This document shows, one piece after another, positions 5,183-40,446 of a DNA stretch of 64,000 bases. The notes beneath the pieces were generated by a model that was not told where the DNA came from, made no database searches, and saw only the letters and a list, made by a program, of their open reading frames with translations. Position numbers and translations under genes: made by a program. This DNA is from an uncultured Acidobacteriota bacterium (lineage in GTDB: Bacteria; Acidobacteriota; Vicinamibacteria; Vicinamibacterales; 2-12-FULL-66-21): contig CAWDRS010000011.1 of the NCBI GenBank assembly GCA_963804795.1, forward strand, positions 281,228 through 345,227. The letters run 5' to 3'. Every line of letters starts with the position of its first letter. Within the stretch, counting starts at the first letter, position 1.

Positions 5183-6026
5183 TCACGCAACAGTATTCGC
5201 AACAGTATTCACCAGCGTTCCGATTGGCTCGATGGTGATGGCAATCTCGTCGCCGGCGGCGAGCGTGAAATCGTCTGGCGGCACGACGCCCGTTCCCGTG
5301 AGCAGCACACAGCCGTGCGGAAAGCTGTTGTCGCGGAACAAGTACCTCGACCAGCTCGCCTGGTTGCCGCTTCATCGACGACAAGGTCGTCCAACCTGCG
5401 AAGACGTTCTCGCCGCTCCGCCGAATCACGAGACGGACCTCGGTCTCGGGCGCGAGCGGGGCCGAGGCGATCAGCACGCACGGACCGAGCCCGCAGCTGC
5501 CGTCGTACACCTTCGCCTGCGGAAGATAGAGTGGATTCTCCCCTTCGATGTCGCGGGAGCTCATGTCGTTGCCGATCGTGTATCCCACGATCGTGCCCTG
5601 CGCGCTGACGACGAGCGCGAGCTCGGGCTCCGGCACGTTCCATGTGGCATCGCGGCGAATGCGGACCGGCTGGCCATGGCCGCGCACGCGATGCGGCGTC
5701 GCCTTGAAGAAGAGCTCAGGGCGCGCGGCATCGTAGACGCGATCGTAGAAGTCGCCCCCTCCTGCCGACTTCGATTCTTCCATCCGCGCCGTGCGGCTCC
5801 GGAAGTAAGTGACCCCCGCCGCCCACACCTCCTGGGATCCGATTGGTGCAAGGAGCCCCCGGAGATCCGGGGTGCCGTCGATCAAGGTTCCGGTTGCGAT
5901 CTGACCCGTCACCCACCCGTGCAGGTCGGCACGATTCACGACGCTGTCCCAGGTCTCACCAGCAAGCCTGAACCAGGCGCCGCCGGACTCGACGAGCACG
6001 GAGCCCGGAAGTTGAAACAATCGCAT
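5183..6026 (-). pseudogene. Fumarylacetoacetate-hydrolase (FAH) family protein, KdaD/XylX-like 2-keto-3-deoxy-pentonate dehydratase candidate, with a +1 frameshift at 5342-5346
   Basis: The N-terminus of ORF 4830..6026(-) is FAH-like up to ..KRQPGELVE. The conserved continuation [53 protein letters not shown] lies in the -1 frame and stops at 5183. The junction on the coding strand is GAG-G-TAC. Confidence 0.8.
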
Positions 6027-18805: not shown

Positions 18806-19076
18806 GACCTCCGTTTGGCGACGGAGGGTGACGGAGGCAGCGGAGACGCTCACAAACGGAGAAACGGGGTCAACGGAGACGAAACGGAGAAGAGGAATCC
18901 AGGGCGCACACAGGCGCTGCTCGCGCGCCCGCCGCAGACGGGCACCCTGCCGCGCTACGCGCGGCGCGAGCAGGCCCCCAGTCCTTCGGCCATTTGAGCC
19001 TTTTCTCCGTTCGTCCTCCGTTAATTCCGTTCCTCCGTTTGTGAACTCCTGTACCTCCGTACCCTCCGTCAGAGAG
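18806..19076. mobile_element. MITE-like element family D, copy D1 (about 70-bp inverted arms made of ACGGAG words)
   Basis: The left arm GACGGAGGGTGACGGAGGCAGCGGAGACGCTCACAAACGGAGAAACGGGGTCAACGGAGACGAAACGGAG pairs with the right arm ..CTCCGTTCGTCCTCCGTTAATTCCGTTCCTCCGTTTGTGAACTCCTGTACCTCCGTACCCTCCGTC. It has no coding capacity. A second copy is at 36186. Confidence 0.75.
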
Positions 19077-19088
19077 GGCACTCCCATC

Positions 19089-22000
19089 TCAGAAGAGCAA
19101 CTTCAGCGTGACCTGCACCCTCCTCGCGTAGTTCCGCTGATTGGAGGCGCTGATCGTGCCGAACGCCACCTGGGTCGGTGTCGTGTTCGGGCCCGGAAAC
19201 TGCGGATGGTTCAACGCGTTGATCGCTTCGAGCCGGAACTGCAGCTGCCTGGCGCCCGCGAGCGAGGCATTCTTGATCACGGACAGGTCAACGTTGTTGA
19301 GATTATCGGTCCGCACCGAGTCGAGCCGCAACGGGAACGTCCGGACGTTCGAGCCGAGCTCCTGGCCGGACGTCCTGTTGAAGCCGGCGTCGACATTGAA
19401 CCAGCGCGCCAGGGTCTGGTCACTCCCCGAGAGTCCGATGTTGTCGATGTCGCCGGTGAAGATGAGGTTCCCGAAGCCGATCGGGAACCCACTCTGATAC
19501 GTGTAGATGCCCTGGAACTGCCAGCCGCCGACAATCGCGTCGACGCCGGCCGGCAGATTGGCCCCGAACCGCCGCCCGCGGCCGACGGGCACTTCCCAGA
19601 TGCCGCTGACGGTGAGGCGGTGCGGCACGTCCTGACTGGAGATGCCTTTCCAGGGGCTCGGGTCGGCGGCGTTCAGGAAGTCGATGGCCTCCGTGAAACT
19701 TGAATACGTGTAGTTCCCGCTGAGCGTGTACCCCGCGGAAAACCGCCGCTGGAGGCCGACCTGCAACGCGTGATACCACGACGTCCCTTCGTTGGTCGTC
19801 GTGTTGACGGTGTCGAACTGCGGATACGGGCGGAGCAGCCGTTCCCGGGCGATCGTCTGCGCGCGAAACACGGCGCCCGCCGTCGCCGGCATCAATCCAA
19901 AGAACGGGTTCGGCACGGTCGCGCTCAGATAGTCGATCGTCGCCTGATCGCGGACCGGGCTCGTGCTCAAGTACTGCTGCGGTGTCGCGTTGATGTTCCT
20001 CGATGTCTGGATGTCGGTGCCGTGATTGCCGACATACGACGCCTCCGCCACCCATCGTCCGGGCAACTCACGCTGCAGGCCCACCTGCCACCGCTGCATC
20101 CGGGGCGATTTCGGATTCGGGTCGAAGAAGGTAATGCTCTGCCCGAGGAACGTCTGAATCCCCAGCGCGGCGCCGACCGGCTCCTGGATGCCCGACAGGA
20201 ACGGATTCGACAGCGTCTCGATGAAGTGCAGGCCGTTGTCGAGCGAGGGCGTCAGGTTGGTCGTGGAGCTGAAACCGCTGGTGACGACATCACCCCGCCG
20301 CTGCCCCAGGAACCCGTAGAAGACACCGTATCCTCCGCGGACGACGGTCTTCTCGTTCACTTTATAGGTGGCGCCGAGGCGCGGCATGAAGTTGTTCTTG
20401 GGCGTCTCGTAGAGACCGTGCGGCTGGCCGTCGACGCCGGCGAACGTCACACCGCCCCTGACCTGGAATTGATTGAGGGGCACGCCCGTGGCCGCAGGGT
20501 TCAGCGCCGCACGCGCCGCCGCCTCCATCGGCTGTACGGCACCCGCATCGAACCCGCGAATGCTGTGATTGTCCGCCTCGGCGAGCGGCGTCTCGAGCTC
20601 GTAGCGGACGCCGAGATTCAGCGTCAGCCGCGATCCAAGCCTCCAGTCGTCCTGCACGTACAAGCCGTAGGTCGAAGACGTCTCGTTGTAGCTCGCCGCG
20701 CGCACGACGCTCCCCGAGCTTGGAAGACCGAGCAGGAACGAGGCGAACGACTGGCCGAGCGAGCCTGGTGCGACCGTCGAGTTGTCGAGCGGACCCCGCG
20801 TCCACGTCGCGTCGAAGTTGAACTGCCCGGTCTGATTGTTGGCGAAGAACTCGGAGGTCTCGCGATATCGGCGGAACTCGAGGCCCGTCCTCACGGAATG
20901 GCGTCCGAGCGATTTGTTCAGCGTGGCCAGGAACGAATGGCTCTCGTTCGGCCGGAACTCGCCGCCGAATCCCGTTCCCTGGTAGTTGGCTGTATTGCCG
21001 TTGAGGAAATCGAACCTTGGAAACCGCCGGATGTCATCGGGGATCGCTGCGTTGTACGACGCCGGAAACCCGAGGGTCGTCAGGTCGAAGCCGTGGTTGG
21101 CCGGATTCGTGTCCGTGCCGCGAACGAACCAGTTGTACCGTACCGGAGGTTCAACACGGTCGTGTTGTTGAACACGAGGACATGGTCGAACGCCGCCTGT
21201 CGGGAGATGAACTGAAACCACTCGCCCGTCGCGAGGTTGTTGAAGTAGTTGTTGTAGTTGCTGTTCCGGTCGTACCAGCTGTAGCGGCCGTACAGCCGCT
21301 GCCGATCGCTCACGTTGTGATCGATCCGGATCGTGTTCGTCGCGTATTTGATCGTTTCGGGTAGCGACGGGTTCTGGAAGTTGCTGGTCCCGTCCGTATT
21401 GCCGGCCGTCAGAGGATGCGCGATGTACTCGAGCGCCGCCCGGGCGACCGGGTTGATCAGGCTCTGCGGAATGATGTTTCCAGGAAACGGATCCTGCTGG
21501 AAGCGGCCGTTGCCTATCGACCGGCGGGTGAACGGATTGTAGATCTGGTATTGAGGCCCGAGCGCGAGCAGGTCGGAGAAGTCGCCGTTGCGCATCTTCT
21601 CGGTCGGCACCGTGGGAGTGCCGTTGTTTCGCGGGCGGGCCTCGTGGATCCCTTCGAATCCGTACATGAAGAACGTCTTCCGCCGGCCGTCGTAGCCCGG
21701 AAGGAGGACGGGACCGCCCGCCGTGCCGCCGTAGCGGTTGTAGGTGAAGTCGGCGAGCGGGATGTGGTTGGCGTTGGCGAAGTAGTCGTTGGCGAAGAGC
21801 TTCGACGGGGTCTTGTTGTAGTAGGCAGTCCCATGGAACGCGTTGGTTCCGGCCTTGATGCTGAGGTTCGTCACACCGCCTTCCGTGTTGCCGAAGGCGG
21901 CATCGAACGTGGCCGTCTGGACCTTGAACTCCTGCACGATGTCGGGTGGCGGCACGTAGGACGCGATCACCTCGCCGGCATTGGCTGTCGCGGTGCTCGG

Positions 22001-24964: not shown

Positions 24965-25057
24965 GCGGCGTAGTGTAACTGCCTCACCTGTCTATCGGAA
25001 ACGGTACAATTGCCTACGCCTCACGACTGATCTCGGTCGCGAGTCTGGAGAGATTGA

Positions 25058-27114
25058 ATGAAAAAGCTGCTGCTGCTCGGCCTGGCTGCGAGCCTGACGA
25101 TGTCGTGCTCGCGGGAAGCTGCGCCGCCCGCGCGTGCCGCGACGCCGGCACCCAAACCGCTCACCGCAGGCGTGGACCCGTCGGGGTTCGACAAGTCGAT
25201 CAGGCCTCAGGACGACCTCTACAAGTTCGTCAACAGTGCGTGGCTCGCCAAGACCGAAATCCCGCCCGACCGCGGTGCGTACGGAGGCTTCTACGAAGCC
25301 ATCGACCGCACGCAGGAGCGCCTCCGGGAGATCGCCGAAGAGGCCTCGAAAGCGGCCAACAAGACGCCGGGATCCGACCAGCAGAAGCTCGGTGACTTCT
25401 ACGCGTCGTTCATGGACGAGGCACGCGTCAACCAGCTGGGCAAGGCGCCACTCGAGCCGGAGCTCGCGCGGATCGACGCGCTCGCGAGCAAAACAGATCT
25501 GTCCCGCCACATGGCTCGCATGCTGATGCTCAACATGACGACGCTCGTCTCCGGCGGCGTGGACGGCGACGCACAGGATCCCGGAACGTCGGTGCTCTAC
25601 CTCGCGCAGAGCGGCCTCGGCCTCCCGGATCGCGACTATTACCTGAAGGACGATCCGAAGCTGAAAGAGTACCCGGACGAAGTACCAGGCCTACGTGGCG
25701 AAGATGCTGACGCTGGCCGGACAGCCGTCCCCGGACGCCGCCGCCAAGGAGATCGTCGCCTTCGAGACGCGACTCGCGCGCGCGCATTGGACGAACGTCG
25801 AGAGCCGCGATGCCGTCAAGACCTACAACAAGGTCACGATGGCCGATCTGCCGAAGCGCTTCCCCGGCATCGATTGGACCGTGTGGGCTCGCGAGCTCGG
25901 CGTCGACAACGTCAAGGCGGTTGTCGTCGCGCAGCCCAGCTATTTCAAGGCGATGTCCGCAGCGGTCGCGGAACTGCCAGTCGATCGCTGGAAGCCGTAC
26001 ATCAAGTTCCACACCGCCAGCGATCTCGCGCCGTATCTGAACAAGGAGTTCGTCGAAGCGCGCTTCGATTTCTACGGCCGCACCCTCCAGGGCGTCAAGG
26101 AGATGCTGCCGCGGTGGAAACGTGCGGTCAACAATCTCGACACCGTGCTCGGCGAGCTGCTCGGCAAGGTGTACGTCGAGCAGCACTTCAAGCCGGATGC
26201 CAAGGCACGGATGGAACACCTGGTCGAGAACCTGCGCGCGGCCTTCCGCGAAGCGATCGACAAGTCGGACTGGATGGGGCCCGACACCAAGAAGGAAGCG
26301 CAAGCCAAGCTCGCCGCCTTCCGCCCCAAGATCGGGTACCCGAGCAAATGGCGTGACTACTCGAAAGTGGAGATTCGGCCGGATGATCTGGTCGGCAACA
26401 TGATACGCGCCTGGATGGCCGACAGCATCTACCAGCTGGGAAAGGCAGGGAAACCCGTCGATCCCGAAGATTGGGGCATGACGCCGCAGACGGTCAACGC
26501 CTACTACAACGCGGTGCGCAACGAGATCGTCTTTCCAGCCGCCATCCTCCAGCCGCCCTTCTTCGACCCCGACGCCGACGACGCGGTGAACTACGGGGGC
26601 ATCGGCGGCGTCATCGGCCACGAGATGGGGCACGGCTTCGACGACCAGGGACGCCGCTACGACGCGAAGGGACAGCTGCGCGACTGGTGGACCGCCAAGG
26701 ACGCCGACGAGTTCACGAAACGGGCGAAGGGGCTCGTCGCTCAGGTACTCAGCGATGGAAGCGTTGCCCGGCCTCAAGGTCAACGGCGAGCTGACGCTCG
26801 GCGAAAATATCGGCGACCTGACCGGCGTCACGATCTCGCATCGGGCGTACGAGCTCTCGCTCGGCGGCAAAGAGCCGCCGACGATCCAGCGGACCACGGG
26901 CCTTCAGCGGTTCTTCTACGGCTGGGTACAGGCGTGGCGAGCGAAATCCCGAGACGACGCCCTGCGCCAGCAGGTCATGAGCAACCCGCACGCGCCGGAC
27001 ATGATGCGGGGCAACGGTCCTCTTCCGAACGTCGCGGCGTTCTACAGCACGTTCGACGTGAAGGAAGGCGACAAACTGTGGCTGGCGCCGGATCGCCGGG
27101 TGAAGCTCTGGTAG
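25058..27114 (+). pseudogene. M13 (neprilysin/PepO) zinc metallopeptidase lipoprotein, split over three frames
   Basis: ORFs 25058.., 25695.. and 26755..27114 join to one M13 enzyme (lipobox LTMSC, NAYY, VIGHEMGHGFD, GENIGD). The shifts are at GAGTACCC 25667-25674 and CAGGTAC 26742-26748, each +1. Confidence 0.85.
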
Positions 27115-31468: not shown

Positions 31469-31720
31469 GGCTCAGTTCATTGTCTCAGAACTCAACCAAC
31501 GATCACCCCGCGCTGACGCGCGGATGGCGATCACCCGGCGCTGACGCGCGGATGGCGCCCCAGAGAGCATGCGGACGCACGAGGTCACCCCAGATCCGGA
31601 AGCACCTTCGGAAAATGTCCGGGAGCCGTCCGCTCGAACGTCGAAGAAACAGAAGCAGGCAGTGAGCCTGACCTTCAACGAATTTCCAGCCCGGCTTGAT
31701 TGAGGGCTCCAGGAGTCGAG

Positions 31721-33509: not shown

Positions 33510-33880
33510 AACCGGGGGGCTTCGCCCCGCCGGACCCCCCAGCGCCGTCGCTCGCGGGGCCCCGTCGCCCCGCTCCGCTCCGGCGGGCGCGCCGTCGGCG
33601 CGCCTGGTTTAGTCATTACACCGGGGGCTTCGCTCCGCCGGCCCCCCAGCGCCGGCGCTCGCGGGGCCCCGTCGCCCCGCTCCGCTCCGGCGGGCGCGCC
33701 GTCGGCGCGCCTGGTTTAGTCATTACACCGGGGGCTTCGCTCCGCCGGACCCCCCAGCGCCGGCGCTCGCGGGGCCCCGTCGCCCCGCTCCCCTCCCGCC
33801 TTCGCTAAAGCTCCGGCGGGCCGCCGTAGCCTTGGCGGAGGCTGGCCGGCGGGCGCGCCGTTGGCGCGCCTGGTTTAAGT
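33510..33880 (+). repeat. Repeat family C, three tandem ~108-bp units (the third carries a ~55-bp insertion)
   Basis: Units start near 33510, 33618 and 33726: ACCGGGGGGCTTCGCCCCGCCGGACCCCCCAGCGCCGTCGCTCGCGGGGCCCCGTCGCCCCGCTCCGCTCCGGCGGGCGCGCCGTCGGCGCGCCTGGTTTAGTCATTAC. Confidence 0.9.
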
Positions 33881-34740: not shown

Positions 34741-36151
34741 TCAGCGCGCCAGCCGCGGCGCCGGCCGGGAAGAGCCGACACGGCTCATCTCGGTCCCCTT
34801 CGTCGTCACGAAGTACTTCGCCAGCATGTTGGGCCGCTCCCAGGCCGGGAGCGCACTTCGATTCCTCAGGTACTCCAGGAAGTTGTTGGTGACCTGTGCG
34901 AAGTGGGCCTCGTGACCGACGCGGAAGGCGTCGGGAATGCCGACGTGGATCTCGGCCCCGCGATCCTCGACAGTCACGCCGGGATACTGCGCTTGGAGCG
35001 CCGAGATCTTCTTCTGGACGGCCGCCAGCACCTGAGGCTTCTCAGCGGCGCGAGTCGGGATCACGTAGAGCTCCGGGCGGAAACGATCGGCCTGTCCCTG
35101 GCGGATCTCGACGCGAGCCCTTGTCCCACGATAGAACGCGAAGTGGGTGTCACCGGATCCCGCCGGCGGCTCCCAGTCCCAGATCACATTCAGCTTCGTG
35201 TGGATGCCTCGCAGCGAGTACGCGACGAGCGTGTTGCAGAAGTACATCGAGGTTCTGACCTTTCACGGCCGAGCCCAGGCTGTCGGGGAAACGTGGCTCG
35301 CGTGTCACGCGCTGGAAATCCTGCTGCGAGATCGTCGTCGGCCAGCGCTGTGCCGCGAGGACCTGGATATCCTTGCGATAGTCGATGGCCGTGTCAGGAA
35401 AGAGCGTCCACTGCACGAGATCCACCAGATGCGTCCCGATGTCGTTCAGCCCTTCGCCTTGCTCGGACGTATCGAAGAACCAGGGTGGCCGGATGTTCGG
35501 AGCGCCAGAGACCACCTTCATGAGGTAGTGGACGCTCTCCATGTAGACGCCGGGATCGGCGTCCGTCCCGGGAACGATCTCCCCGAACGCCGCCGGATCG
35601 TTCACGAGCGCTCGCTGCAGTATCGAGGTAATCTCGAACCGCTCCGTCATGATGTCGTAGGCGACGACACCTCGCTTGTCCGCTTCTGCGAGCGTCGCCT
35701 CGAGCTTCGGAAGGTCGTCGGACTTGAGGATCCACGGCTTGTCGCCGAGCACGTTCAAGCCGGCGCTCACCGAGGCGGCGATCCGGTCGATCTTCACGCG
35801 GTTGCGTCCCGAGAGCATGACCACGTTGCCTGGCCGCTCCCGGAGCATGCGCTCGAAGTAGTCGGGACTGGTGTGGACGTCCAGGTCCCACGATGTCGGA
35901 TGATCACCGCGATGGTTGTACGCGGAGATGCGGTTCAGGTGCTCGATCAGGTCGGGTCCGAGCGGCGCGAAGACGTCGACGCGCGGCGCCACGCCGGGAT
36001 ACATCTCTTTCTGGACGAGGGCGGCGTGGAAGTGCCCCGGGTCGAGCGTCATCAGTCGGACCTGAGCCATCGAACGGCCGCCCTCCTGGGCGGCGAGGAG
36101 CCCGCCGCCGACGACGGCGGCCGCGACCAGAACAGGGAGCCTGGATCTCAT
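34741..36151 (-). pseudogene. Gfo/Idh/MocA-like oxidoreductase with putative-oxidoreductase C-terminal domain, +1 frameshift near 35242-35246
   Basis: ORF 35150..36151(-) ends ..[12 protein letters not shown]. The continuation [24 protein letters not shown].. lies in ORF 34741..35247(-). The junction on the coding strand is GAT-G-TAC. Confidence 0.8.
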
Positions 36152-36561: not shown

Positions 36562-37409
36562 ATGCTTGCAGGGTTCCCGCGCATCCCCATGAACGTCCCT
36601 CGCCCTGCCGCTCGTTTTCGTGCGCTTGTCCTGACGGCCGTCGCCGTGGTCGGACTCGGCGCGGTGACGCTGGCCCAGCGCCGCAACTTCGGAGGGTTCG
36701 GGGATCGGGGCCGGCCACCCGAGATCCTGCCCAATATCCCGTACGACGGCCGCTTCACGTTCGTCCGCGTGAGCTACGACACGGCGCCCGGCGGCTACTG
36801 GTACCGGGGATTGCCCTCGTGGGCTCACGGCTATCCGGTTGCCGAGCGCAACCTCATGAAGATCATGAACGAGCTCACGTTCCTGCACGCCCACGACGAG
36901 GGCGTGAACACGATGACGCTCGACGACCCGCGACTCTTCGAGTATCCCGTCGCATACATCATCGAAGTCAGCTGGTGGACGATGACCAGCCGGCAGGGTG
37001 AAGCGCTCCGTGAGTACATGAAGAAGGGCGGCTTCGTGATCGTGGACGACTTCAAGGCGGATGGCGACTTCGGCAGTCCCGGCTGGGCGCCGTTCGAGGC
37101 GAACATGGAGCGCGTGCTGCCCGGAGCACGGTTCGTCGAGATGAAACCGTCGCACCCCATCTTCCACTCGTTCTTCGAGATCGAGGCGCTCGATCATTTT
37201 CCACAGGCCTACAACGCCGGCCCGCCCAGCTTCCTCGGACTCTTCGAGGAGAACGACCCTTCCAAACGTCTCCAGATGATCGTCAACTACAACACCGATA
37301 TCTCGCAGGTACCTGGGAGTGGTCCGGACAAGGGATCCGCCCGATAGACGACACGAACGAGGCGTACAAGCTCGGAGTCAACTACATCATCTACGGTCTG
37401 ACGCACTAG
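36562..37409 (+). pseudogene. DUF4159 family protein, +2 frameshift at GGTACC 37308-37313
   Basis: ORF 36562..37347 is DUF4159-like up to ..NYNTDISQ. The conserved C-terminus YWEWSGQGIRPIDDTNEAYKLGVNYIIYGLTH* lies in the +2 frame and ends at 37409. The junction reads CAG-G-TAC-C-TGG. Confidence 0.8.
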
Positions 37410-37508
37410 CCCGCGCTCCAGCTCAGACCATCCAGCGATTCAGTGCAGGTGTTCTTGATTCAAGAGCTCTATACGTCAGCCCGCGATTTCCCGCGATTTC
37501 AGATCCGC

Positions 37509-37537
37509 GTGGCTTCCGCCTTACGGCGGAAGCTACC
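37509..37537 (+). repeat. Repeat family B, single-hairpin copy B3
   Basis: GTGGCTTCCGCCTTACGGCGGAAGCTACC. Confidence 0.75.
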
Positions 37538-37572
37538 TGGGCGCGGAGCGGCAATATCTATCCGGAGACTCC

Positions 37573-40225
37573 ATGACACGAGCGCGCCTGGCCGCCACTC
37601 TCGCTCTCATCTCTTCCGTACTCGTCGCCGCATACGCCCGGCAGCCGGCACCCGATTCAGTCAGCTCCGTCATCGATGGACTGACGTTCAGGAACATCGG
37701 CCCGTTTCGCACGGCAGCGTGGGTGACGGAGGTCGCCGTCCCTGAATCTCCCCTGCACGACCACCTCTACACGATGTACGCCGCCACACGCAGCGGAGGT
37801 CTGTGGAAGACGACGAACGCCGGCACGAGCTGGTCGCCGATCTCGGACAGCGTCGGCGCGGCTGCCGTCGGCGCTGTCGCCCTCGCCCCCTCGAACCCCG
37901 CGATCGTGTGGATGGGCACAGGCGATCAAGCCAATGCGAGGTCGTCGGTACTCAGGCAAAGGCCTGTTCAAGTCGATGGACGGGGGCGCGACGTGGCAGT
38001 CCGTGGGCCTCACGGACTCGCATCACATCGCCCGGATCGTCATCCACCCCACGAACCCCGAGGTCGTCTACGTGGCAGCGATGGGCCACCTCTTCTCCAG
38101 GAACGCGGAGCGCGGCGTCTTTCGGACGACTGACGGGGGAGCCACCTGGAAGAAGGTCCTCTACGTCAACGACGGCGTCGGCGCGATCGATCTCGTCATC
38201 AACCGGCAGACGCCGTCCGTCCTCTACGCCGCGTTGTACGACAAGGAACGCCGTCCCTGGCAGATCGTCGAGAGTGGCCCGGAGAGCGGCATCTACCGGA
38301 CCGCCGATGCCGGCGACACCTGGCAGCGGCTCGGCGGCGGGTTGCCTGCGGGCAGAATCGGCCGGATCGGGCTAGACCTCTATCAGAAGAACCCGCGCGT
38401 ACTCTACGCGCTCCTCGAGAATCAGAACCCGAAGCCAGGCGCCGCCGGAGGCGAAGTCAGCGCGACGCGTCCACTGGCCGGAGGCATCGTCGGCAACGAG
38501 CTGTATCGAACAGACGATGGAGGCGGGACGTGGCGGCGGGTGACGGACGTCAACGTCGCCGGAGGCAAGGCGCCGTATTCCTTCAATCAGCTCCGCATCA
38601 ACCCCCACGACGACCAGACGGTCATCGTGACCAGCGATTCGATGTACATCACCAGGGACGGCGGAAAGACGTGGGACACCGGTTTCTTCCGCGGTGTGTT
38701 CGGGGACTTCCGCTCGATGTGGTGGGACCCCGACAATCGCGATCGGATCATCCTCGGCAGCGACGGCGGCGTCAGCGTATCCGTCGACGGTGGCCGTACC
38801 GGTGACTACTTTCCCAACATGGGCATCGGCGAAGCGTACGCGCTCGGCGTGGACATGGACGATCCGTACAATGTCTACGCTGGCTTTCAGGACCATGATT
38901 CCTGGAAGGGCCCGAGCAACAGCCCGACCGGCCGCATCACGCTCGAACACTGGGTCACCGTCGGTCCCGGCGACGGTATGTACAACGTTGTCGACCCGAC
39001 CGACACCCGCTGGGTGTACAACACGCGCGAGCTGAATCAGCTCGGCCGGATGGATCAGCGGACGGGTGTGCGCACGAACATCGCGCCCACACGCCCGCCG
39101 GATCGCCCGCGGCTGCGGTACAACTGGATTGCTCCCATCGCACTCTCGCCCGAGGACCCTCGGACGCTCTATGCCGGCGCACAGCTGCTCTTCCGCTCGC
39201 GTGACCGCGGAGACACCTGGGAGGAGATCAGCCCTGACCTCACGACGAACGATACCGCCAAAACGGGGTTGAACGTGCCTTACTGCACGATCACGTCGAT
39301 TGCGGAATCGCCGCTCCGCGCAGGGGTCATCTGGGTCGGCACGGACGACGGGAAGGTGCAGCTCACGCAGGATCAGGGAGAGCGGTGGACCGACCTGACG
39401 CCCGCACTCGTTGCCGCCGGCGCGCGCGCCGATCGGTGGGTCAGCCGGGTGTTCGCGTCGCCGCACGATCCGGCCACCGCGTTCGTCGCAAAGAATGGCT
39501 TTCGGAACGACGACTTCGCGGCCTATCTGTATCGGACCGCGGACTATGGCCGAACCTGGACGAGCGTTGCCGGCGACCTTCCCGCCGCGCCTGTCAACGT
39601 CGTGGTGCAGGATCGACGGAACCGTCAGCTGCTGATCGTCGGCAACGACATCGGCGTGTTCGTGTCGATCGATGGCGGCGCACGTTGGCACCGGCTGAAG
39701 GGGAACCTTCCGACCGTCGCGGTGCACGACCTGACGATCCATCCGCGAGAGAACGACCTCGTGATTGCCACCTACGGCCGCGCGCTGTGGACTGGAGACA
39801 TCACGCCGCTCCAGGAATTATCCGGGGAGATCTTGAATCGCGCCGCCTATCTCTTCGACATGGAGCCTCGAGCACGATACGGCTTCAGCACGCAGGGGAT
39901 GAACTACCACCTCTTCGGCGACAAGTATCTGGAGGTGCTGAACGAGCCGGAGGCGCTGGTGGTCAACTACTACCTCGGCGCGGATGCGGCAGCCGAGGCA
40001 CGGATCGTCGTGTCGAACGCGGCGGGTCAGACCGTGCGGCGCGTGGACGGCCCGGCGAAGAAAGGCCTGAATCGGGCCCTCGTCAGCCTGGGTGGCGGGG
40101 GCGGCCGCGGGCGAGGAACCACCGCGATGCCCCCCCTGCCCGTCGGCGACTACAGCGTGACGGTCGACGTCGCCGGTGCCACGCTCACGAAGAGCGCGAG
40201 GGTGCGAGCTCGGATAGGTATCTGA
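37573..40225 (+). pseudogene. Sortilin/Vps10-type BNR (Asp-box) beta-propeller protein, +1 frameshift at 37947-37951
   Basis: ORF 37573..38133 (signal peptide, ..WMGTGDQANARSS) continues in ORF 37934..40225 (YSGKGLFKSMDGGATW.., repeated S/T-x-D-G-G-x-T-W boxes). The junction is TCG-G-TAC. Confidence 0.85.
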
Positions 40226-40282
40226 GGGTCGTGACCCCTCGCGTGCCGAGCAATCGGATGGCTTGGTGCGCTGCCTTTTAAC

Positions 40283-40446
40283 AGGAGGAAGGGAGGAGGG
40301 GAGGAACGAGAGGATAATGCCCCTCAACGTCGAATGAATCTGCAGGCTGCTTGCGCCGCGCTTCGCGCGGGTGAGTGACGAGAAGTCCCGACTTGATGGC
40401 GCAGAGCTCCTCTCGTTCCTCCCCTCCTCCCCTCCTCCCCTCCTCT
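40283..40446. repeat. Intergenic hairpin element E with purine-word arms (GGAGG/GGGAGG)
   Basis: The left arm AGGAGGAAGGGAGGAGGGGAGGAACGAGAGGA pairs with the right arm TCCTCTCGTTCCTCCCCTCCTCCCCTCCTCCCCTCCTCT. The inner 20 nt are perfectly complementary. Confidence 0.85.

Follow-up and report, generated by a model that had tools for sequence, protein, structure and literature searches.

The locus raises the question of why a DUF4159 gene should change reading frame 31 codons before its end. It lies on the plus strand of the window, the stretch of 64,000 nucleotides that we analyzed, where the called open reading frame (36562-37347, 261 amino acids) runs to ...NYNTDISQ and then into an unrelated tail, VPGSGPDKGSAR and a stop (37309-37347), for which no homologue has a counterpart; as assembled, its product would end ...DISQVPGSGPDKGSAR. 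At 37306-37316 the assembly reads CAGGTACCTGG, and the codons across the break are GAT ATC TCG CAG / G / TAC / C / TGG GAG TGG, with the first TGG at 37314-37316. Upstream is an N-terminal piece of 249 codons in the original frame (36562-37308, MLAGFPR...NYNTDISQ), and downstream, displaced by +2, a C-terminal piece of 31 codons, WEWSGQGIRPIDDTNEAYKLGVNYIIYGLTH, closed by TAG at 37407-37409 (37314-37409). A preliminary description of this DNA had counted five bases, GTACC, in the space of a single expected Tyr codon, and both its coordinates and its account of the break are borne out by Pfam and by the frames. The Pfam profile PF13709 matches the called frame over positions 3-172 of 202 (E = 4.5e-33; 114.9 bits, above the gathering cut-off of 25.9) and the shifted piece over positions 174-202. 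As one match ends at 172 and the other starts at 174, exactly one profile position, the Tyr, is missing between them. Set against DUF4159 (PF13709) genes of Acidobacteriota and Vicinamibacterales, the two pieces jointly cover positions 3-202, collinear with intact family members over the full length and in the same gene order. The TAC at 37310-37312, which is in neither flanking frame, corresponds to position 173 and is the gene's own Tyr codon.

If the +2 shift belonged to the gene, homologues might be expected to share its consequences. We searched 40 related genomes for orthologues and found two in the same genus, G002 (84% nucleotide identity) and G003 (81%), whose DUF4159 frames are unbroken (290 and 322 amino acids) and end ...DISQYWEWSGQGIRPIDDTNEAYKLGVNY(V/I)(V/I)YGLTH. 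Intact DUF4159 proteins of relatives are 281-322 amino acids long with the C-terminus ...SQYWEWSGQGIRPIDDTNEAYKLGVNY(I/V)(I/V)YGLTH, and none ends near 37347, which refutes a genuinely different C-terminus. At the Tyr site, G002, G003 and a genome of the same order, G039, read CAG-TAC/TAT-TGG or GAG-TAC-TGG, followed by GAG. A protein search returned a still closer match, P0001 (281 amino acids), which starts where the N-terminal piece starts, is 98% identical along the whole of that piece and has its gene on six contigs, which come from six JGI metagenome samples. These conspecific contigs are 97-98% identical to the window at the nucleotide level (BLASTN) and share with it the local order of a 469-amino acid Oxidoreduct_C protein, DUF4159, an 883-amino acid BNR/sortilin protein and a GYD protein. 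All six read CAG-TAC-TGG, the sequence that had been proposed as the original and that the same-genus orthologues also support, and in 6/6 the alignment gaps fall exactly opposite the G at 37309 (AG[G]TAC, square brackets marking the extra base) and the C at 37313 (TAC[C]T). Both bases are likewise absent from G002, G003 and G039. Relative to conspecific DNA, then, the window carries two extra bases in this gene. Judged by these alignments, the gene would in reality be an intact and ordinary one of 281 codons, differing from its family only by those two bases.

The comparison also touches regions around the gene. The syntenic region of G002 holds no gene matching window 37420-40300, and two intergenic segments of the window, at 31499-31527 (29 nt) and 33797-33847 (51 nt), are missing from the conspecific metagenome contigs.

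The two bases are present in the deposited sequence, and the simplest literal reading is that this strain's DUF4159 gene gained them by mutation and is now either a pseudogene of very recent origin or a variant with a truncated C-terminus. The conspecific contigs differ from the window by 2-3% and so come from other strains; taken alone they are compatible with a strain-specific mutation and cannot exclude one. Such a history would require two independent insertions flanking a single codon, and it would be expected to leave the downstream frame to decay, which we do not see. The 31 displaced codons differ from those of G002 by nine synonymous and two conservative (I/V) changes, their translation is 100% identical to the C-termini of G003 and P0001, and over these 31 codons there is neither relaxed constraint nor any further lesion. 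We therefore regard a genuine mutation as improbable, a judgement to which the rest of the genome contributes further.

To place the site in its genomic setting, we scanned the whole assembly (G000; 7.14 Mb, 27 contigs, 65.6% G+C) for frame switches, which were called by a Viterbi model on codon-usage log-likelihoods trained on 1219 long open reading frames. The scan returned 2910 direct same-strand switches, 1904 of them not coinciding with a stop codon. We then compared the k-mers in the 30 nt around these ~1900 non-stop switches with those at 40,000 random coding positions. GTAC was the most enriched 4-mer (2.5x), and its occurrences show a sharp peak at distance 0 from a switch. The top 6-mers, GGTACT (11.6x), AGTACC (8.9x), AGGTAC (8.7x) and GTACCT (5.9x), form two reverse-complement pairs. 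By 6-mer context, only GGTACT (14%) and AGTACC (12%) exceed the 3-5% background frequency of switches; GGTACA, GGTACG, GGTACC and AGTACT do not, nor is there enrichment at control palindromes such as GATC and CATG when these are expanded in the corresponding way (to AGGATCT, ACCATGT and others). Because only GGTACT and AGTACC are elevated, AGTAC is the pre-error sequence (GTACT when read from the opposite strand), and the insertion falls directly 3' of it. An alternative rule, an extra G before any TAC, was rejected, as CGTACT, TGTACT and AGTACT are all at background.

Genome-wide, somewhere between about a hundred and a few hundred AGTAC sites are affected, and the inserted base is usually, but not always, C/G (it is A at 35246). 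Around the hit sites we found no second half-site of a Type I-like bipartite motif upstream, and the downstream differences reflect shifted codon periodicity. That the lesions are so numerous and so sharply dependent on context again speaks against a mutation private to DUF4159. AGTAC is nevertheless one hotspot inside a generally insertion-prone assembly and not the sole cause of its breaks: roughly 1100 switches are likely frameshifts in which the upstream frame stays open for >100 nt (961 of +1, 148 of +2), and only ~15% of them are linked to GTAC. Among the likely +1 frameshifts away from GTAC, roughly 650 in number, a k-mer comparison revealed no second motif.

Susceptibility at AGTAC depends strongly on what follows. 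An extra C is found at 17% of sites when the next dinucleotide is TG, at ~5% for AG, GG, CG, GA and TC, and at ~1%, the background, for most others. The DUF4159 site falls in the most exposed of these settings. Its pre-error sequence, CAGTACTGG, would contain the palindrome AGTACT, which presents AGTAC on both strands, and would also place AGTAC before TG within the 8-bp palindrome CAGTACTG. This is the hottest context in the assembly, hit at ~35% per side. One hit on each strand would yield AG[G]TAC[C]T, the C at 37313 being the other-strand mirror image of the G at 37309. Sites hit on one side only, as AG[G]TACT or AGTAC[C]T, are frequent genome-wide. With the two sides independent and each hit at the rate averaged over AGTACT, the expected number of double hits is ~0.8. 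Among evaluable CAGTACTG sites, ~10 are unhit, 6 are hit once and 4, including the DUF4159 site, are hit twice; independent hits at ~35% per side predict 8.5, 9.1 and 2.5, respectively. Three further sites in the genome show AGGTACCT with a +2 shift, all of them inside CAGGTACCTG, and read CAGGTACCTG(G/C) as does the DUF4159 site. As the count of double hits is close to the independent expectation in CAGTACTG, the DUF4159 site is the expected outcome of two independent one-sided errors. The earlier proposal that a one-sided error had struck both strands of a palindrome thus fits the single and double hits across the genome, but its motif needs narrowing from GTAC in general to AGTAC^, the caret marking the insertion point.

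If these insertions were real, they should be confined to genes that a cell can afford to lose. We find the same lesion type in rpoC, which is single-copy and essential. Outside the window, at contig C11:374396-374415 of G000, the gene is split by an extra C (GTG CAG TAC [C] TGC CAC; the assembly reads CAGTACCTGC), and the NCBIfam profile TIGR02386 matches positions 1-582 (or 1-584) upstream and 584-1146 (or 578-1146) downstream of it in different frames. A whole-genome search found just these two pieces, and this rpoC is the sole copy. Both gltB (SGQY/RVYKEY) and clpB (GAKY/RGEFEERLK) are broken in the same manner. With rpoC, gltB and clpB split, the lesions could not be real ones carried by a living cell, and this weighs against a genuine mutation in DUF4159 as well.

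The extra C in rpoC is identical in G002 and absent from G003, where the gene is intact. One could take its occurrence in two species, G000 and G002, as a sign of inheritance rather than of recurrent error, which is a counterpoint, along with the strain divergence noted above, to treating these insertions as artefacts. The shared hit is also what a context hit at ~35% per side predicts, and it could point to a common cause, for example one sequencing platform or a DNA modification present in both. The sister species-representative assemblies are themselves error-prone: G001 (C13:~430603) and G002 (C1:~1290000) carry extra single-base insertions in rpoC, GGG[C]CGC and TCG[C]AAGG, neither of them next to a GTAC.

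We also considered whether the extra bases are real and bypassed in expression, by programmed frameshifting, by quadruplet decoding (TACC/GTAC) or by transcriptional editing. Both flanking frames in DUF4159 are conserved and intact, as such recoding would demand, and the rpoC insertion is common to two species. As in programmed +1/-1 frameshifting of prfB and dnaX, two conserved frames meet at a defined short sequence. Unlike those systems, the sites found here show no orientation dependence and no shift conserved among orthologues, the +2 is made of two separate insertions, and the insertions strike many unrelated genes. Relative to the gene, the extra base can precede or follow TAC (NNG/G/TAC/T, n=19; NAG/TAC/C/NNN, n=48), with genes on both strands affected, and insertion in both orientations rules out a translational signal. 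Moreover, most in-frame AGTACC and GGTACT sites are read normally, and conspecific and G003 DNA encode the same protein without the extra bases. Quadruplet decoding in particular was rejected on the unshifted orthologues, the two orientations and the tRNA complement, in which a single, ordinary tRNA-Tyr(GTA) and no four-base-anticodon tRNA were found. We give recoding practically no credence. The tRNA search itself (ARAGORN) recovered only 40 tRNAs in G000, no tRNA-Asn or tRNA-His among them, which agrees with the MAG being incomplete (completeness 89%).

A process acting on the DNA itself, for example damage and repair after cleavage by a GTAC-specific nuclease or glycosylase, might insert bases in the sampled population, and it would account for lesions that are motif-specific and strand-symmetric. 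Under such a process, however, GTAC would hardly be expected to survive the event, yet it is kept at the hit sites; the remaining GTAC contexts are at background; essential genes are affected; and hundreds of motif-free insertions are present in the same assembly. No ScaI-type enzyme was found: RE_ScaI (PF09569) has no match in G000, although the control genomes likewise gave none, and EcoRII-C (PF09019) has no match in G000 either. We consider a process of this kind very improbable, more so than a plain mutation.

Long-read consensus assemblies are known for systematic, motif-linked indels at modified or difficult k-mers, which break open reading frames in uncorrected MAGs. The breaks described here resemble them in being single-base indels at one motif, strand-symmetric and independent of gene orientation, in affecting essential genes and in their absence from conspecific assemblies made independently. 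They differ in the motif itself, AGTAC^ (strongest in CAGTACTG), and in their almost purely insertional character, neither of which is known to match a documented case, and no methyltransferase was linked to the motif; a literature search for a documented GTAC or AGTAC long-read error returned nothing specific. Within this assembly, the hotspot is motif-linked and strand-symmetric across the genome, and essential genes bear the same defect. Recurrence at the motif above the controls, strand independence, the presence of the insertions in essential genes and their absence from independent conspecific assemblies are the marks of a systematic error. Collectively, these comparisons make it very probable that the +2 shift in DUF4159 is a sequencing or assembly artefact at a recurring motif and that the gene is whole in the organism.

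Our inference is that the fault arose during base-calling or consensus building and is not present in the DNA. The source would be an error-prone, probably long-read, MAG of a soil Vicinamibacterales acidobacterium, with many single-base insertions in its consensus and a hotspot at which an extra base, usually C, is called directly after AGTAC, or, on the other strand, an extra G before GTACT. Physically, the base-caller could be confused by this k-mer, or AGTAC(N)G could carry a DNA modification. A possible, though rather doubtful, extension is that the hotspot at AGTAC(N)G, with its peak at CAGTACTG, reports a real modification, by an uncharacterised methyltransferase or otherwise, which two or more species of the genus would have in common. 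Modified bases would then alter the sequencing signal and produce the insertions, which would also explain the rpoC C shared by G000 and G002. No GTAC- or AGTACT-type restriction enzyme having been found, a modification-based cause is at present unsupported.

If the insertions are artefacts of this assembly, then other genes in the window should show them where independent DNA is available for comparison. Along the ~11.7 kb that aligns to the conspecific contigs, the only frame-breaking differences within genes are insertions at GTAC sites; the remaining indels are intergenic or consist of an in-frame 6-nt repeat change. Besides the two in DUF4159, these insertions are in the Gfo/Idh/MocA-type oxidoreductase gene (Oxidoreduct_C; 469 amino acids when intact) at 35246, AGTAC[A]TCG, and in the gene for the BNR/sortilin-Vps10 protein (883 amino acids when intact) at 37948, TCG[G]TACTCA, in a CGTACT context. 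All four insertions in the 34.4-40.3 kb region are absent from all six JGI contigs, at 97-98% identity. A conspecific contig of 10,961 bp has 20 strand-specific AGTAC sites, and the window carries an insertion at 4/20. Further upstream, the gene for an M13-family peptidase (25056-27107) has two separate +1 insertions relative to G002, at ~25672 (GAGTAC[C]CGG) and ~26743 (CAG[G]TACTCA).

The TonB-dependent receptor gene behaves differently. Its tandem site, CCGGTACGGTAC at 21132-21143, lies in a minus-strand gene and reads CTC CGG TAC GG/TAC AAC TGG in the sense direction, and the preliminary description had taken it for a second case of the same kind, with a net gain of two bases. A search for a conspecific TonB receptor found none, the best match being 85% identical. 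Aligned to this homologue (P0122), the upstream piece extends to Y500 and the downstream piece resumes at N503, and four homologues of the receptor have LRY-G-(Y/F)-NWF at this point. Given that motif, the site is short by one base (TAC GGn TAC) and not +2 or +5. A generalization that all the disruptions are insertions therefore does not hold. The site adjoins GTAC, and the underlying problem may be a miscounted run of G before TAC.

DUF4159 itself offers no unusual biology; what the site provides is a rule for quality control, of use here and in related assemblies. Single-base insertions number roughly a thousand in this assembly and at least two sister species-representative genomes, and the position after AGTAC is a hotspot that can be predicted. 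In view of such insertions, no interpretation should be placed on an apparent pseudogene, a split gene or a 'novel C-terminus' in these genomes. Among the genes affected are the M13 peptidase, the Gfo/Idh/MocA-type oxidoreductase, the BNR/sortilin protein and the TonB receptor in the window, and rpoC, gltB and clpB elsewhere. The low completeness estimate (89%) may be due in part to such breaks, and the AGTAC rule offers a cheap flag for like artefacts in related MAGs.

Several other features of the window were noted along the way. Frame switches adjoin GTAC at 5342 (AAGTACC), 22332 (AGGTACT) and 47753 (CGGTACA), the last in a TGTAC/GTACA rather than an AGTAC context. At ~50489, an S8-protease-like gene has a frame switch with no GTAC within 200 nt, an example of a motif-free insertion. 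Finally, a ~70-nt element at 19000-19072 has dozens of matches in G002 at 80-90% identity and looks like a REP-like dispersed intergenic repeat.
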